Origin: Piedraia hortae CBS 480.64
Lineage: Eukaryota
Direction: 5' to 3'
Assembly: GCA_010093745.1 (NCBI GenBank)
Contig: MU005986.1
Location: forward strand, 186,001 to 207,168
Length of the DNA: 21,168 nucleotides
Positions 2,956-15,132 of this stretch are shown here, piece by piece (positions within the stretch are counted from its first letter, which is position 1; every line of letters starts with the position of its first letter). Below the pieces are notes generated by a model that searched no databases, was not told the origin of the DNA, and saw only the letters and a program-made list of their open reading frames with translations. The position numbers and the translations under genes are program-made.

Positions 2956-5574
2956 TCAAGGCGTGATTCCTCTTCGTTGGAGAAAGCCTTGAAGCAAACC
3001 GTCCAGATCGTCCATTATTCTCGCCGCGGTCTTGCGTTCTTCGGAATACAAGTCTGCGATTAGGGGATGGTCGTGGGGGACGGGTTTGACGTCCGTGTCG
3101 TCGTAGACGAGGGTTAAAAGGTCCCGGACTTCGCTGCCGTCATCGTACCAGGCGCGAAGGTTGGCATCAGACCATTCCTGTGGTGGCGTTGGGGGAGTTT
3201 CGATGGGGTCGTTTCTTGCCACTTCTTCTGTTGGATGTGTTTGGTGTTCTGCTTGTTGAATGGGTTCTTCCTCCTGCCCTTCTTCCTCCTGCTCTCTGCC
3301 CTCTTGCTCCCTAAACGGATTCGGCCCTTCCTCCTCGGTCGGCGAGTCGAAATCGTCAAGCTCTACCCTACGTTTGGCCCGCTTGGCTTTTTTGGGTCTC
3401 TCCTGATCGGGTGATAGGGTTGTTTTGATGGTGGAGAGGATGCCTTCTTTGGGCTGTTCGGATACCGGCGCTGCGGCTGGAGCTGCTAGTGGAACTTTGC
3501 TCTTTCCAGCTGCTGGCTGCACCACGCGGATATCGGTCGGGGATGGCTTCTCAACAGGAGAGGAAATTTGACCAATGACCGGACTTGATCGTGGCGAATC
3601 GCGTGAATCACGACCGACATCTGTCACAATCTTATCGATCCCTTCATCCTTCATCTTCTTGTCCTTTCTCTTGAACAAACCGCTGAGCATGCCAGACTTG
3701 GGTTTATCTTTTTTCTTGGTTTCCTTTGGATTGACTCGAATTGGAGCCGGTTCCGGGCCTGATATGACTGTGTTGAGGTTCTCTGCACTGCCAGTGTGGA
3801 CGCCCTCGGGCATTCCGGCCGGAGAAGCAGATCCCTCACGCAGCAGACCGGGTGTCAGAGTGATCCTGCGAGGCTCCGCTGCATCATCCCGCAGAAAAGA
3901 GTCGGAATTGCGCGATGTGCCTTTGCGAGATTAAGTGGCGCCGCTTCTGTCTTGTCAATAAGTCGCTGTGTTTCGTGAAGTGAAGGAGTGTGAGTGGCAG
4001 CCTGTTCTCGATCAAAGGAAGCACGCTTCGCAGAGATGGTCGTCTTAGGCTCATCTTCCGAGTTGCGTGGAGTGTTCTCCGGAGCCGAGGGCTCGACATG
4101 GCCGTTTCGCTGAACCGTCTGCGCTGCAACGGCGGGTTCACTCATCGGCTCAGCTTCGTCATCCTCATCAGACGAATACTCCCGATCAGAGGCCTCTACA
4201 TAGGTAGGAGGAGCAAACTGCACAGTTTTAGCATTGCGTCTGCGCATTGCCTTTTTCAAGGGATTGCGAGTTTTCTCTGAATTGTCGCTGAGCATGGTTG
4301 CAGCAAGCTGTGGCATTTGTCAGAGGAATTACAATAGTTTAACACAGACTTACATCAATGTTTCTGTGCTTGTTCAACCGGGCCAGCCGCTCTGTCGGTG
4401 TTTCGATGTGTTCTGCTGGGAGGTAGCCTAAGCTGTCAGTTTGAATTGTCATTTTAATTCAGATTTCCTACCGATGCTGCTGTCCTTGACCAGCCGGACG
4501 AGCCACCAATAACTGTTGCTGTCGTCGAGCAGAATCATGGTGTCGCCCTTTGTGGCGTTGGCCTGGCCCTCGACGGTCGCGACAAACGTGTGCAGGGCGT
4601 ATACGAACTCGAGGTCGATGTCATCTGTATCATGTAAGCTTCCGCCCTCAGAAGACGACGAAAAATCATAAATAAAAGCGTCAGATGCATCATCTTGTGT
4701 TTCCTGCGGATTTTCGGTCAGGAGCGGGTCGTTTTCAGGCAGGAAGCATTCGGAAATGTCGACGCTTTCGAGGCTGATGAGGCTGGGGGATTGGCCAAAC
4801 GTGGGCATGTAGATGCCGAGGCCGCTTGTAGTCGGAGCTGACGGAGACGGCGGCTCCTCTATGGGAAATTCATCTGGACTGGCAGCCTCATCCGGATGAG
4901 GAGTGGCCGGGCGGGAAACTTGTTCTGGACAGCTTCCCCTCCCAAAGAGATCCTCCCACGAGGGGCGACCCACGCTTCTAGCCCGATCCGCAGACTTACC
5001 CCGATGACGCACTGGTGGGGATTTGGTCAACTTTGCCCTGTCGGGAGGACGTTTGGATTCCTAATCCAAAGCCTTCGACGGCAAAGAAGTCCGGGGGGAT
5101 GCGGAACTGTTGAAGTTCTCGCGCGATAACTTGCGACTGAGCCTTGACGGCCAGACTTTGAAGGGGTTCTTGCTTGCTTTGGGGCGGGACCCACCATCAT
5201 CGATGCTTGGCGAACTCGAGATTCGATCCATCAATTCCTCGTCACTGTCTCCGTCTCCGTCTTGGTATTCGGGTTCAGCGCTGCCATTGGCTCCGTGGCC
5301 GTTAGCGCGCATGTCTTCGGGCTCATCCTTGCGACCGGCAGCTGCCCAGGCATTAACCAGCAGCTGTTCCTCCGACTGTCGCTCGTGGATGACATGTTGC
5401 AGCTGCGAGACCTGGTGCGGGCCAAGTCCGTCGCGGCCGAATGCGGGATCGGGGTGTTCGGCGGCCGACGGGCTGTCTTGATCTTGCAAATCGAGCGTAT
5501 CTGTCTTCATGAGCGCTGGCGACCGCCTTGGGCAAAATGTACGAACCTGCGCGCACAATTCCTGGTCGAGCCAT
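2956..5574 (-). CDS. TEA4: SH3-domain cell-end marker/polarity protein, Tea4/Bud14 (TeaC) family; carries an apparent 1-nt frameshift at about 3931
   Basis: Exons (minus): 5574-5547, 5500-5195, 4624-4472, 4427-4354, 4307-2956. Introns: 5546-5501 (GTTCGT..CAG), 5194-4625 (GTGGGT..CAG), 4471-4428 (GTAGGA..CTGAC..TAG), 4353-4308 (GTAAGT..CTGAC..CAG). The spliced product reads MARPGIVRADTLDLQD...ISSSPSIDDDDIDLEFVYALHTFVATVEGQANATKGDTMILLDDSNSYWWLVRLVKDSSIGYLPAEHIETPTERLARLNKHRN (SH3 plus family motif), then KTVQF (RVxF-type PP1 docking) and C-terminal WSDANLRAWYDD...HPLIADLY. About 637 aa if one base is restored at 3931. Confidence 0.88.
4625..5194 (-). other. 570-nt in-frame intron (exitron-like) of the SH3 gene
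   Basis: GTGGGT donor after ...GATGATG. CTTAC branch-like site plus CAG acceptor before ATGACATCGAC. Length is 190 codons with one in-frame stop (5061-5063). Confidence 0.75.
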
Positions 5575-6162
5575 GGTCTCTCCACAAAATTTGGCGGGCC
5601 TCGAGGGCGCGACCCTAGCAAACACGCTGATGGGCGCGTCGCATACCAGTGGAGAATCGAGTCGGACGGTTGCAGGGAAGAATTTGCCACTTTTGGTCGC
5701 GACGACGTTCAAATCCGGTTGTTGGAGGTCTGATCGTCGCAGACCTCAAACACGGAGGCGCGCTCTGATTGGTGCATCGCTTCGGGTTTGAAACCCTGAC
5801 AGCGACGCCCCGCATGTGCGCCATCCAATGACTCGCCGACCCCATGATTTAAGGCGGGGGAGCCCCTATGGCGACATGTAGATCCACCCATTAGTGTTTG
5901 ATGTTCAACCACAAGTGGGTACATCGAGTTCATAAGCAATTCCTCGCATTACCGTCGTAGATGAGCTCGACAGCGGCCTATAGAAATTTGTGCATCGCGT
6001 CTTCTCACAGGACAATGGCGAATGCCGTCCTGCCAAGCAGAATCGCAACTAGAAGCCGTTCTAGACAATGTAGTTGTTATAGGCCAGCTATATAGAGCCT
6101 CGACTTTTGTCCCATCACACCTCCACAACACCAATGAACCCCCCCAAGATGATACCGTAGCC

Positions 6163-7272
6163 ATGCTCGAGTTCATGGACACGGTCCTCGCCGCCTTCCA
6201 TGTGCAAACGCGCTGGGATGTGGACCAGAGCTATGCGACGCTGACGGCTACGGCCCACAACGTTCTAGACTTTCACATTCCAAACGGTGTCAAGATTCAT
6301 GCATCGTCCCTGTCATCTCCCAATTTTGCCACAAGCTACACGCTCGGCAGTCGAGGCGTTGTCGACGGCAGTTTATCCTTTTTATACTCTAGCCTGGGCT
6401 TGCATCTCGACAGCCAGAGCGCAAGAGTGCCGTTGGAGAGCGTAGTAAAAGGCTACAGACAGTTGCGTCGACGGCAGCCGTTGGAGGAGGGTAATTCACC
6501 GAGATCTGACCATAAGAAAGACTCATTACTTTACGGACGCGTCTACCTACCAGGTAATTCATTAGAAGCACTATATCTCCGCCGGATATCCGCAAGACGA
6601 CTGCTGCGACTGAATTGCGTTTCAGACGGACAGATACCCAACAGCAGCACCTTGCTGGCTGTGCTGCAAAACGATAATGGCAGATACAGCACTGAATATC
6701 TCTACTCTACCGACTCTTCCCTTCTTGGGGTGAGAGGTCTCTACAACTTTGGCTATAATGAACGAAGCGGAAGGCTGAGTGCCGGAGCAGAGGCTTACTT
6801 TAGTCCTGTTAACAAGAGTGGTGGGATGAGCTGCGGACTGCGATTTACCACTCTCCCAGCCCATGGAGCTTTTCCGTATACCATGACTTTAACAGTCAAT
6901 CCACTAATGGGCAATCTGAGCTCTGCTTATGCGGTCAAGGCAGGCCCAGATCTTGCATTTTGTTCCCGCTTTGACTTTAATGTATACAGCTATGAGAGTC
7001 AAGTGACTGTGGGAATGGAACTATGGAAACGAGGCTGGGCGTCTCCGGAGACGGCATGGATGCGGCAGATGATCCGGCCAGGGTGGAAGCGGAATGAAGA
7101 AGACATTACCGGCGTGTTCAAGGCGCGAATGGACACTCATGGAAAGTTTGGCCTCTTGTGGGAGACCAAATATAAAGATTTGCTGGTAAGCATGGGAACA
7201 GGTCTTGATTTGAAATCAGAGGAGCGAATGGTAATGGGTAATGTTGGTTTGGAAGTCAGCTATTCCAACTAG
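6163..7272 (+). CDS. MDM10: Mitochondrial outer-membrane beta-barrel Mdm10 (ERMES/SAM subunit), 369 aa, intronless
   Basis: Typical N-terminus MLEFMDTVLAAF...W..DQSY. Motifs SSLSSPNFATSYTLG, VDGSLSFLYSS, LLYGRVYLP, LEALYLRR, GRLSAGAEAYF, TLTVNPLMGNLS, SRFDFNVYSYES and C-terminal GLEVSYS. The start ATG has GCC context. Confidence 0.95.
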   Translation: MLEFMDTVLAAFHVQTRWDVDQSYATLTATAHNVLDFHIPNGVKIHASSLSSPNFATSYTLGSRGVVDGSLSFLYSSLGLHLDSQSARVPLESVVKGYRQLRRRQPLEEGNSPRSDHKKDSLLYGRVYLPGNSLEALYLRRISARRLLRLNCVSDGQIPNSSTLLAVLQNDNGRYSTEYLYSTDSSLLGVRGLYNFGYNERSGRLSAGAEAYFSPVNKSGGMSCGLRFTTLPAHGAFPYTMTLTVNPLMGNLSSAYAVKAGPDLAFCSRFDFNVYSYESQVTVGMELWKRGWASPETAWMRQMIRPGWKRNEEDITGVFKARMDTHGKFGLLWETKYKDLLVSMGTGLDLKSEERMVMGNVGLEVSYSN

Positions 7273-7441: not shown

Positions 7442-8769
7442 ATGAGCATCCCAACTTCCGTGGTCAGCTTGCAGCTACCATCGTTACGAACGAAGCTAAC
7501 AATTGATCCAGACTTCTGAGCTCAACGGCCTCAAAATGGATTCGCCACCCCACGCGGCCGTGAATGGCCACAAGGGCAGCGTAGCCGCTCTCTACGAAAA
7601 TGACGAACTCGCCGTGCCAATTAAAGGCATTCCCACACTTCCAGAAGAGCCAAAATCCAAAAACGAACCAACCGTAGCCAAAGGCCTCAACAAAGAAGAA
7701 GCTTCCGAACCACTTTTGCAAGAAAATCCGCACCGTTTCGTCCTCTTTCCCATCAAATACCATGAGGTCAGTGTAAAAATTCCTTAATACTAAATACCCA
7801 CTGATGGCAAAGATCTGGCAAATGTACAAAAAAGCCGAAGCCTCGTTCTGGACGGCCGAAGAAATCGATTTATCCAAAGACCTCCACGACTGGAACAAAC
7901 GTCTCACCGACGACGAACGCTTCTTCATATCCCACGTATTAGCCTTCTTCGCCGCCTCCGACGGGATCGTAAACGAAAACCTCGTTGAGCGTTTCAGCGC
8001 AGAGGTCCAAATCCCCGAAGCACGCTGCTTCTACGGCTTCCAAATCATGATGGAAAACATCCATTCGGAAACCTACTCCCTCCTAATCGACACTTACATC
8101 TCCGACCCAAAACAGCGCAGCTATCTCTTCAATGCAATCGACAACATACCCTGTATTCGTCAAAAAGCAGACTGGGCTCTGCGCTGGATCAGCGATAAAA
8201 ACTCTACTTTTGGCTGCCGACTAGTCGCATTTGCGGCTGTAGAGGGGATCTTCTTCTCCGGCTCATTCGCATCAATTTTCTGGCTCAAGAAACGCGGTCT
8301 AATGGCTGGACTGACCTTTTCCAACGAACTCATCTCCCGCGACGAGGGGATGCACACTGATTTCGCGTGTCTTCTCTTCTCGCACCTGAACCATAAACCC
8401 TCACAGGCTACAATCGAAAAAATCATCACAGAGGCGGTGGCGATTGAGCAGGAATTCCTCTCCGAAGCTCTGCCTGTTGCCCTCTTAGGCATGAACGCAA
8501 AGCTAATGTGTCAGTACATTGAATTCGTCGCAGACAGACTGCTCCTCGCGCTGGGGAACCAGAAGTACTATAAAGCTACGAATCCGTTTGATTTCATGGA
8601 GAACATCTCCCTCGCAGGGAAGACGAATTTCTTTGAGAAGAGGGTCGGCGATTATCAGAAGGCTGGGGTTATGGAGAAGAGTCGAAGACATCAGGAAAAG
8701 AGGGAAGGAGATCAGCCTGGGGCTACGGGGGCGGTTAGTGGCGATTTTGCGTTTGATGAGGATTTTTAG
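7442..8769 (+). CDS. RNR2: Ribonucleotide reductase class Ia small (R2) subunit, about 410 aa
   Basis: Exons 7442-7462, 7512-7766, 7813-8769. Introns GTCAGC..GCTAAC..CAG and GTCAGT..CTGAT..AAG. Motifs [53 protein letters not shown] (radical Tyr), [24 protein letters not shown] and C-terminal FDEDF. The exon 1 donor could alternatively be at 7460. Confidence 0.97.
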
Positions 8770-13665: not shown

Positions 13666-15132
13666 ATGGTCCTCCAAGATCTTAGCGCCCGTCTCAGCGG
13701 TGCCCTAAGCACCCTAACCCACGCCCCCACCCTCACCGAAAGCACCTTCGAAACCCTCCTGAAAGACCTCTCCAACGCCCTAATTTCCTCCGACATAAAC
13801 ATCTCCCTCGTAACCTCTCTCCGCAAACGCATCAAATCAACTGTAAAACTCTCCCAACTCCCCCCCCACGCGAACAAAAAGCGCATAATCCAAAAAGCCG
13901 TCTTCGATGCTCTCGTCGAAATCGTGAATCCCGGGGTGAAACCCTTCGAGCCAAAACGTGGCCGTCGGAACGTGATAATGCTGGTAGGACTCCAAGGCGC
14001 AGGAAAGACAACCACCGCGACGAAGTTGGCGAAATTCTACCAGACGAGGGGTTTCAAGACTGGACTGGTGTGTGCGGATACGTTTCGCGCGGGGGCGTTT
14101 GATCAGTTGAAGCAGAATGCTATCAAGGCAAAAATTCCGTATTATGGGTCCCTGACGGAATTGGATCCGGTTGCTGTGGCTAGGGAGGGGGTTGAGAGGT
14201 TTAAAAGGGAGAAGTTTGAGGTTATCATTGTTGATACTTCGGGAAGACATAGACAGGAGGAGGCGCTGTTTGAGGAGATGAAGGATATTGGACAGGCGGT
14301 CAAGCCGGATACGACGATTATGGTGCTGGACGGGAGTATCGGACAGGCTGCGCAGGAGCAGAGTCGCGCTTTCAAGGCTGCAGCGGGGTTTGGAGGGATT
14401 GTGATCACCAAGATGGATGGGGCGGCTGCGGGGGGAGGGGCGGTTTCCGCCGTTGCTGCGACCCACACGCCGATTGTGTTTGTCGGAACCGGGGAGCATG
14501 TGCATGATCTTGAGAAGTTCAAGCCTGAGGCGTTTGTGAGTAAGCTGCTGGGCATGGGGGATCTGAGTGGACTGGTGGAACATGTTTCGAGTTTGAGGCT
14601 GGAGCAGAAGGATACGATGAGGAATATGGCCGAGGGGAAGTTTACGGTTAGGAATTTGAGGGATCAGCTTACGAATGTGATGAAGATGGGTCCACTTTCG
14701 AAGATGGCGGGGATGATCCCCGGACTGCAGGCGGCGACTGCCGGGATGGATGATGCGCAGGGTTCTGAGAAACTCAAGAGGATGGTTATGATTATGGATT
14801 CGATGACTGCGAAGGAATTGGATTCGGACGGGAGGATTTTAACAGAACAGCCGGGGAGGGTGATTAGGGTGGCACGCGGGGCAGGGACGTCAGTGCAAGA
14901 GGTGGAGGATTTGCTGGCGCAACAGAGATTAATGGCTGGTATGGCGAAGAAGTTTAAGGGGATGGGTGCCCAGCAGAATATGCCGGGGAACAAACAGCAG
15001 ATGGCTGCGATGCAGAAACGGATGCAGAGTCTTGGTATGGGCGGTGGGAGGGGGATGCCGGATATGAGTTCTCTCATGGGTGGGGGAATGGATATGGGTA
15101 AGATTATGCAAATGATGAGTGGTATGAGATGA
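13666..15132 (+). CDS. SRP54: Signal recognition particle 54 kDa GTPase subunit, 488 aa, intronless
   Basis: MVLQDL N-terminus. G1 GLQGAGKTT, DTFRAGAFDQLKQNA, G3 DTSGRH, G4 TKMD, GTGE. Met-rich M domain with IMDSMTAKELD and RVARGAG. Confidence 0.98.
   Translation: MVLQDLSARLSGALSTLTHAPTLTESTFETLLKDLSNALISSDINISLVTSLRKRIKSTVKLSQLPPHANKKRIIQKAVFDALVEIVNPGVKPFEPKRGRRNVIMLVGLQGAGKTTTATKLAKFYQTRGFKTGLVCADTFRAGAFDQLKQNAIKAKIPYYGSLTELDPVAVAREGVERFKREKFEVIIVDTSGRHRQEEALFEEMKDIGQAVKPDTTIMVLDGSIGQAAQEQSRAFKAAAGFGGIVITKMDGAAAGGGAVSAVAATHTPIVFVGTGEHVHDLEKFKPEAFVSKLLGMGDLSGLVEHVSSLRLEQKDTMRNMAEGKFTVRNLRDQLTNVMKMGPLSKMAGMIPGLQAATAGMDDAQGSEKLKRMVMIMDSMTAKELDSDGRILTEQPGRVIRVARGAGTSVQEVEDLLAQQRLMAGMAKKFKGMGAQQNMPGNKQQMAAMQKRMQSLGMGGGRGMPDMSSLMGGGMDMGKIMQMMSGMR

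Follow-up and report, generated by a model that had tools for sequence, protein, structure and literature searches.

Exitrons are coding introns: they lie inside exons, are multiples of three nucleotides (nt) in length, and have been described in plants and humans. Among the matches listed for exitrons in the fungal literature, no fungal case is apparent in the titles and abstract openings. The closest described system to the one considered here is FgBUD14 of Fusarium graminearum, in which editing corrects a premature stop codon (PSC), UA1334G to UGG, and goes together with alternative splicing of intron 2 (Liang et al. 2021, Environ Microbiol, as cited in the available parts of PMC11156358, PMC11050156 and PMC10962958). 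FgBUD14 is the orthologue of our subject, a Tea4/Bud14-type SH3 'protein phosphatase regulator' gene of Piedraia hortae CBS 480.64. This gene occupies positions 2956..5574 of the minus strand (ATG at 5574-5572; stop codon TGA at 2958-2956) in what we call 'the window', namely the whole 21,168-nt stretch of contig MU005986.1 (assembly GCA_010093745.1, positions 186,001 to 207,168) that was analysed. Its intron 2 is likewise alternatively retained, and carries a single in-frame UAG at the apex of a hairpin. We propose that this UAG belongs to a conserved recoding switch, operated most likely by adenosine-to-inosine (A-to-I) mRNA editing, in a fungal class from which mRNA editing has not been reported. 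We put the probability of this reading at about one half.

Fungal mRNA editing is placed by current papers, in the portions accessible to us, in the Sordariomycetes, together with a probably independent case in Pyronema, and is tied to a cofactor function that evolved there. The enzyme responsible, Tad2/Tad3, is a tRNA deaminase; the adenosine on which it naturally acts, A34, comes after U33 in the anticodon loop, which has 7 nt and caps a 5-base-pair (bp) stem (PMC11156358). Editing depends on an interaction between Ame1 and Tad3 that is reported to have evolved in Sordariomycetes, and short isoforms of Tad2/Tad3 belong to the machinery. It shows as A-to-G in transcripts, typically of sexual structures, while the DNA keeps A. 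It strongly prefers U at -1, then positions +1 and +3, and the loops of stable hairpins (PMC11156358, PMC9600606), the favoured neighbours being U at -1 and G or A at +1 (PMC9600606). The origin of PSC editing is placed in Sordariomycetes, and the accessible text reports none in Leotiomycetes (PMC10776026, PMC11087585, PMC9600606, PMC11156358). Some 70 F. graminearum genes require UAG-to-UGG correction; published PSC sites derive mostly, not always, from TGG. Dothideomycetes, the class to which P. hortae belongs, are mentioned only as an outgroup in the available text of the literature searched, with no report of mRNA editing.

Intron 2 is a conserved exitron

The identity of the gene is clear. 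Its top protein match is P0001 (762 aa), from P. hortae CBS 480.64 itself, which carries a precomputed PF00018 SH3 assignment and whose exon-encoded residues are identical to the window translation. Relatives found in the same search carry the names Tea4 or protein phosphatase regulator. This search, made with the Tea4 frame, gave 929 matches, and the analysis rests on the best 120 of the 929. Intron 2 (4625..5194, minus strand; GTGGGT..ACAG; joint 5195|4624) is 570 nt, or 190 codons, long. It is in frame with both neighbouring exons and homologous to coding sequence in relatives. Exon 2 (5195..5500, minus strand), delimited like exon 3 by the sequence and transcript joints, ends with ...SSSPSIDD and the first base of a codon; exon 3 (4472..4624, minus strand) holds the start of the SH3 domain (DDIDLEFVYALHTF...DSSIG).

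Both forms of the transcript were observed. Contigs matching the stretch exist in two public runs, X1 and X2, from two studies. X2 is labelled only 'RNA?', and we take it to be RNA-derived because its contigs show four GT..AG joints on the minus strand, which skip 5501-5546, 4625-5194 (570 nt), 4428-4471 and 4308-4353. The spliced joint 5195|4624 occurs in a contig of depth 341. A colinear X2 contig spanning 4596-5224 retains intron 2, has a depth of 33.9, and shows 0 differences from the window. The three introns of 44-46 nt are represented in X2 by joints alone, and contig depth is 0 over 5658-5800, upstream of Tea4, the last RNA contig ending at 5642; the colinear contig therefore stems from retained RNA rather than from DNA carry-over. 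Intron 2 is mostly spliced, the retained form accounting for roughly one-tenth of the depth, a figure good to an order of magnitude only as contig depths are crude.

In other fungi the same segment is sometimes annotated as protein and sometimes as intron. Both anchors that flank it, SSSPSIDD and DIDFEFVYALHTF, are present in 116 of the 120 annotated proteins, the other four being without one of them, and between the anchors relatives annotate either 100-294 residues or an intron with the same junction. The spliced form is modelled in 16 of the 116 (Baudoinia, Zymoseptoria, Dothistroma, Peltaster, Pseudocercospora, Elsinoe, Macrophomina, Aureobasidium and others), and the long form in 100. Among the long forms, Gly directly follows the 5' anchor in 94, as a G|GT donor demands, and in all 100 the Glu/Asp that precedes DIDF is itself preceded by T, A, I, S, L, P or V, residues whose codons have a pyrimidine (Y) as second base and so fit an NYA-G acceptor. 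Alternation between the two forms was seen directly in the window organism; elsewhere we infer it from these 16 spliced and 100 long models.

Metagenome DNA tells the same story. Our survey combined 79 fungal metagenome loci with the window to give 80 copies, of which seven are cut off on the 5' side and 73 can be evaluated. The 73 form 54 distinct sequence clusters and, in a quick tree, span Dothideomycetes, Sordariomycetes, Leotiomycetes and Chaetothyriales-like rows. The length of the exitron is divisible by three in every one of them (420-882 nt), its end is YAG in every one, and its start is GT in 72, the exception being probably a mis-anchored match. In-frame stops are absent from 68 of the 73; the other five have exactly one each, and it is always TAG.

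Intron 2 thus presents as a coding intron, a multiple of three in length, with an open frame, conservation at the protein level, and a ratio of nonsynonymous to synonymous change (dN/dS) of 0.14-0.47. Sequence comparison points firmly to an ancient exitron of Tea4/Bud14 with conserved boundaries and GT and YAG splice sites. Like the exitrons of plants and humans, it is internal to coding sequence, a multiple of three, mostly stop-free, and both spliced and retained in RNA (the latter in the window organism); it too has protein-level homology and dN/dS below 1. Unlike them, it keeps identical boundaries across several classes of filamentous ascomycetes, and in two lineages appears to be gated by a UAG. 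With 73 of 73 copies in frame, it illustrates cleanly how an alternative coding intron can be deeply conserved among fungi. One practical consequence is that public models of this gene differ by some 250-290 residues, or hold micro-introns that hop between frames.

The UAG and its hairpin

The in-frame UAG is codon 45 of the exitron frame (5061..5063, minus strand), and the candidate edited A is at 5062. It is the sole stop in this frame; the other two frames of the exitron have 3 and 10. One stop or none was found in 0.8% of 20,000 shuffles, and zero stops in the 145 codons past the TAG in 0.5%. Nor is the codon an error confined to one assembled data set: both X1 and X2 have contigs that cover it with 0 differences, X1 being possibly the assembly's own source.

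From 5079 to 5040 the minus strand reads GUCGAAGGC-UUUGGAUU-AGG-AAUCCAAA-CGUCCUCCCGAC. The inner hairpin (5052..5070, minus strand) is a perfect 8-bp stem formed by UUUGGAUU (5070-5063) and AAUCCAAA (5059-5052), closed by the loop AGG (5062-5060). Further out, GUCG (5079-5076) can pair with CGAC (5043-5040). The A at 5062 is the first base of the loop, in the context UU-A-GGA, and opening two apical pairs yields a 7-nt loop, UUAGGAA, on a 6-bp stem. In RNAfold, 40 nt fold with -13.0 kcal/mol (z -2.14; 5 of 200 shuffles as good), 75 nt with z -2.36 (4 of 200), and 121 nt with z -1.23 (21 of 200). The minimum free energy (MFE) and centroid folds of the 75 nt, the consensus of five taxa described below, and counts of paired bases all extend the hairpin into an irregular helix of about 20 bp (5031..5086, minus strand) with the UAG at its apex. 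A preliminary description of the window, made from the sequence alone, had drawn the stem, its outer extension and the lone UAG with its A first in the loop, and had named the gene and called the intron retained; reading of the frame, folding, the match to P0001 and the transcript contigs bear all of this out, and the 121-nt fold that it proposed reproduces the hairpin.

A hairpin of this kind is unremarkable in itself. Perfect 8-bp hairpins with loops of 3-8 nt are no commoner in the window than chance predicts, at 3 versus 2.46 +/- 1.76, with 42 of 100 dinucleotide shuffles containing at least 3. Chance does not account for the hairpin falling on the sole stop of the frame, nor for its being conserved in relatives. 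The open frames on either side of this TAG, each of at least 100 codons, are also the only such pair in the window to be divided by one TAG. ARAGORN found no tRNA (0) in the region of the element, and no Rfam match at E up to 1 was obtained in 4500-5600.

The same UAG in relatives

A homologous TAG is present in four divergent Teratosphaeriaceae-like metagenome contigs, L001, L002, L012 and L005. The window motif, LPSKALD*ESK, corresponds to PLSKALD*EFS, PLSRALD*EST, PLSMAVN*ESS and PLSKAVG*EST, respectively, the last from a partial contig. A pairing of the window stop with the Thr of SSPFxQTPQHLP was rejected, as inspection of the motifs places the homologue further on, at SKALD*ES. The codon is number 45 in the window and about number 82 in the relatives.

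In the quick tree, L001, L002 and L012 fall in a clade (Shimodaira-Hasegawa-like approximate likelihood ratio test, SH-aLRT, 96) that includes Meristemomyces, Friedmanniomyces, Teratosphaeria and Hortaea. The window forms a long branch (1.51) within an enclosing clade of 31 rows (SH-aLRT 97), nearest to Meristemomyces; because the branch is long and the tree quick, its exact sister is unsure. The window organism and the four TAG-bearing relatives are placed in Capnodiales/Teratosphaeriaceae. Ribosomal DNA (rDNA) trees, in the available part of the source, resolve Piedraiaceae inside Teratosphaeriaceae (PMC2816965). Together these placements make a single origin of the TAG in Teratosphaeriaceae the simplest reading.

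The frame beyond the TAG is open for 145-197 codons in the TAG-bearing taxa. Synonymous differences among these taxa amount to 0.55-0.76 per site, which is near saturation. Past the TAG, L001 and L002 differ with pN 0.245 and pS 0.682, for a dN/dS of 0.165; L002 and L012 give 0.137, and the window gives 0.26-0.47 against the other TAG taxa. These ratios indicate purifying selection on the downstream frame.

The helix has been conserved along with the UAG. Folded alone, each of the five TAG sequences has an MFE structure in which a long, irregular helix carries the UAG in its apical loop; in L005 the fold is outright a 7-nt loop, UUAGGAG, on a 6-bp stem. In the five-taxon consensus from RNAalifold, 20 pairs enclose the loop AGG, the closing pair being an invariant U-A. 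Of the 97 cells of this structure, 90.7% are paired; shuffles give 85.1 +/- 2.0%, with 0 of 500 reaching the observed value, and sliding the partners leaves 29-50%. Changes on both sides, of the compensatory kind, occur at 6 of the 20 pairs, a number reached in 2 of 500 shuffles. The window is without the downstream peptide motif SPFDE, yet a different sequence there restores the outer helix. At the matching codon of the three nearest non-TAG loci (L006, L003 and L004) there is no such helix, and a covariance model of the element, R1, matches only its five training sequences in 520,430 bases of loci, the next best hit having E 0.47. Identity at synonymous codons is 44 of 68 in the 16 codons around the TAG and 338 of 707 elsewhere (Fisher p 0.011), a modest signal given that 20 of 244 other windows are as high.

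Proposed recoding by editing

If the UAG were never read through, the frame behind it would not stay open and constrained while synonymous sites approached saturation. We therefore find a strong case that the UAG is recoded from stop to sense. That the recoding would be A-to-I editing is suggested by four things: context, structure, likeness to an anticodon arm, and the Fusarium precedent. The switch might work as follows. Removal of the exitron would give the short isoform, the major form in the window organism, and retention would give a long isoform with some 190-290 additional, disordered residues ahead of the SH3 domain. In the Teratosphaeriaceae/Piedraia lineage, the retained form would be gated by the one conserved UAG at the apex of the stem-loop. 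Opened by two pairs, the stem-loop would adopt the shape of a tRNA anticodon arm with the 7-nt loop YUAGGAR, in which a U stands at -1, the A takes the position of A34, and a purine takes the position of 37. Tad2/Tad3, or a stage-specific form of it, would deaminate the A, and the UIG so formed would presumably be read as Trp. The complete long protein would then be made only when and where editing is active; otherwise the chain would end 45 codons into the exitron.

A narrower version of this proposal is more tentative, and we hold it at somewhat below even odds: that restorative UAG-to-UIG (Trp) A-to-I mRNA editing takes place in Dothideomycetes (Teratosphaeriaceae, including Piedraia), independently of the Ame1-dependent system of Sordariomycetes, on an anticodon-arm mimic conserved since the near-saturation of synonymous sites, and convergent with Fusarium on the same exitron of Tea4/Bud14. 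For the largest fungal class to have a conserved, hairpin-borne UAG followed by a translated frame would imply one of three things: editing could be older, it could have arisen again, or a sufficiently close anticodon mimic could recruit the ordinary tRNA deaminase.

The likeness to Sordariomycete PSC editing by Tad2/Tad3 and Ame1, in the accessible parts of PMC10776026, PMC11087585, PMC9600606 and PMC11156358, is considerable. There, as here, a single UAG interrupts an otherwise intact, transcribed frame, its A flanked by U (-1) and G (+1) in the loop of a stable hairpin. As in the editing of PSC 'pseudogenes', the TAG is conserved among relatives, with a selected frame downstream, and the site lies in a disordered region ahead of a conserved domain. 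The differences are that the window lineage is Dothideomycete, outside the lineages with documented editing, and that an ancestral Trp is not evident. The tRNA anticodon arm itself resembles both YUAGGAR, with two pairs opened, and a loop from a Fusarium-like contig, CUAGCAU, in having A at loop position 3 after U and a purine at position 6. It differs in that the present element is part of an mRNA, sits on a much longer and irregular helix, and has a predicted loop of just 3 nt in three taxa.

The Fusarium-like contig is L034, which resembles Fusarium oxysporum and groups with Fusarium odoratissimum (support 100, quick tree). It has a single TAG at exitron codon 119 (L034:743-745), in the 7-nt loop CUAGCAU on the 5-bp stem GAAGG/CCUUC, and the annotated Fusarium proteins P0049, P0093 and P0120 differ from one another exactly at this site. 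The L034 TAG is probably the counterpart of the published FgBUD14 site; it may correspond to position 1334, and 'intron 2' of FgBUD14 may be this exitron. FgBUD14 and the window gene are alike in belonging to the same family and in having a single in-frame UAG in an alternatively retained intron 2, and the TAG of L034 is in the same exitron, also at the apex of a hairpin. This is the Fusarium-type precedent to which the preliminary description had appealed in general terms, found now in the orthologue itself. The two systems differ in fungal class, and editing is inferred in the window lineage. Because the site within the exitron also differs (codon 45 in the window, about 82 in its relatives, 119 in L034), the stops would have arisen independently.

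A further TAG was noticed in a Pleosporales-like contig (L042:181-183), where it replaces the conserved Ser of SSSP-S-IDD in the constitutive exon just before the exitron donor. Its local fold is weak (z +2.8); it could reflect an error or represent a further stop of this type.

Several observations count against recoding by editing. The sole RNA-derived contig that crosses 5062 has A there, and no G-bearing contig is among those listed, which argues against majority editing in the X2 sample; contigs hide minority variants, and the growth stage of that sample is unstated. The Ame1-Tad3 interaction is reportedly of Sordariomycete origin, so a Dothideomycete would need another route. Where the TAG is missing, relatives have S, M, E, D or T in its place or close by, rather than Trp. 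The sister groups Vermiconidia, Saxophila and Mycosphaerellaceae read straight across it, and none of the four matches (P0003, P0022, P0008 and P0018) to an L002 query in which the TAG was read as W, scored on residues 120-300, has Trp there. The covariation rests on five sequences, and the structure tested was derived from those same sequences; the folding z-scores of the four relatives, -0.83 to -1.49, are unremarkable. In the window lineage, finally, the exitron is shorter, some of its motifs are lost, and dN/dS is higher, so that the long isoform may be under relaxed constraint there and matter less than it does in the relatives.

Seen against these points, the idea of the preliminary description that the UAG is a stage-specific switch for a long isoform in an organism outside the lineages with reported editing stands in part. 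Retention, a conserved TAG, selection downstream, and the Dothideomycete affiliation speak for it, while the A-to-G change predicted at 5062 was not seen. The comparison of orthologous introns that it recommended had a similarly divided outcome: the TAG is conserved with compensatory changes in the stem, and relatives without it have varied residues other than Trp near the site.

Alternative explanations

The best-surviving alternative, which we consider unlikely though well ahead of the others, is that the UAG is a genuine, selected stop. Retention would then yield a truncated protein without SH3, or a target of nonsense-mediated decay, and the downstream coding sequence would be kept through an isoform that avoids the TAG. 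This explanation requires no enzyme activity that is not already known, agrees with the unedited TAG in the retained contig, and has a possible example of the avoiding isoform in P0022 (Meristemomyces), a model that joins the exitron donor to a site past the TAG region. None of the four X2 joints bypasses the TAG, however, and the five taxa share no conserved in-phase YAG acceptor within the 75 codons past it. The relatives' models disagree with one another by skips and frame hops, as expected of software dodging a stop, and neither the base-paired presentation of the UAG nor the compensatory changes are accounted for.

Programmed translational readthrough, in which a near-cognate tRNA (Gln, Tyr or Lys) decodes the UAG with no change in the RNA, we regard as improbable. 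It suits a conserved TAG with a conserved frame behind it, and an unedited RNA contig, and the bases just past the stop (GAG/GAA U) are nearly invariant. These bases are nevertheless unlike the leaky contexts UAG-CARYYA and UGA-CUAG. Known stimulators of readthrough lie some 8 nt downstream of the stop. Here the stop is inside the loop of the helix, whose 5' arm would already be melted when the stop enters the A site.

The hairpin might instead be a splicing-control element that sets the frequency of retention, the UAG being incidental or a protein-binding motif. A role of this kind, to which we give little weight, could coexist with the other readings. The element does sit in an alternatively spliced intron, and its structure is conserved. 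An in-frame stop in all five taxa, and the frame kept open downstream, are left unexplained, and the exitron is in any case TAG-free in 68 of 73 copies, the three nearest non-TAG loci keeping the same splice sites with no hairpin either.

A recent, private nonsense mutation or an assembly error, tolerated since the intron is usually spliced, was the mundane alternative of the preliminary description, and might be looked for in an organism whose genome and gene count are the smallest among 101 Dothideomycetes (PMC7082219, available part) and whose Tea4 gene is a long branch with an apparent 1-nt frameshift further on; it is contradicted by the homologous TAG in the same motif and hairpin of four divergent taxa and by purifying selection downstream, as well as by the agreement of contigs from two studies and by 145 open codons that only 0.5% of shuffles reach, and we consider it very improbable.

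Other features of the gene and the window

The remaining introns of the Tea4 gene are short, and all are on the minus strand. Intron 1 (5501..5546; 46 nt; GTTCGT..CAG) and intron 4 (4308..4353; 46 nt; GTAAGT..CAG) are given by X2 joints and by their ends as read. Intron 3 (4428..4471; 44 nt; GTAGGA..TTAG) is given by an X2 joint, and its cut can be shifted by one base either way. The path taken by the deposited model P0001 around the TAG was rejected. It needs two 'introns', of 26 and 22 nt (5169-5194 and 4998-5019, minus strand), and a change of frame, and the retained X2 contig is colinear there, with no such joints. Similar inconsistencies across this spot are found in models from Friedmanniomyces, Hortaea, Meristemomyces and Teratosphaeria, which contradict one another through skips, an alternative acceptor or unrelated residues.

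Further along the gene, at 3925-3945 (minus strand), an apparent 1-nt deletion affects the conserved motif EAAPL-K-SRKG. The frame ...TEAAPLN reaches a stop, and SRKGTSRNSDSFLRDD carries on in another frame. The deposited model cuts about 150 nt near this place, with a weak GTGCTT donor. A true frameshift, an unusual intron and an error in the sequence are all possible causes of the anomaly.

Two more perfect 8-bp inverted repeats are present in the window, at 327-345 and 5725-5747. The latter is about 150 nt upstream of the Tea4 start codon, past the last RNA contig. Two long pairs of open frames, each pair in one frame, are divided by TGA: at 15130-15132 (plus strand), with 491 and 225 codons, and at 14664-14666 (minus strand), with 169 and 173. 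These are probably in-frame introns or overlapping GC-rich frames. Reassignment of TAG as a sense codon was considered and rejected, as TAG terminates three of the four long neighbouring open frames that were checked, which are not verified gene models. Two such neighbours, at 5965-7272 and 7777-8769 (both plus strand), end in TAG, and the second resembles, by eye, the small subunit of ribonucleotide reductase.

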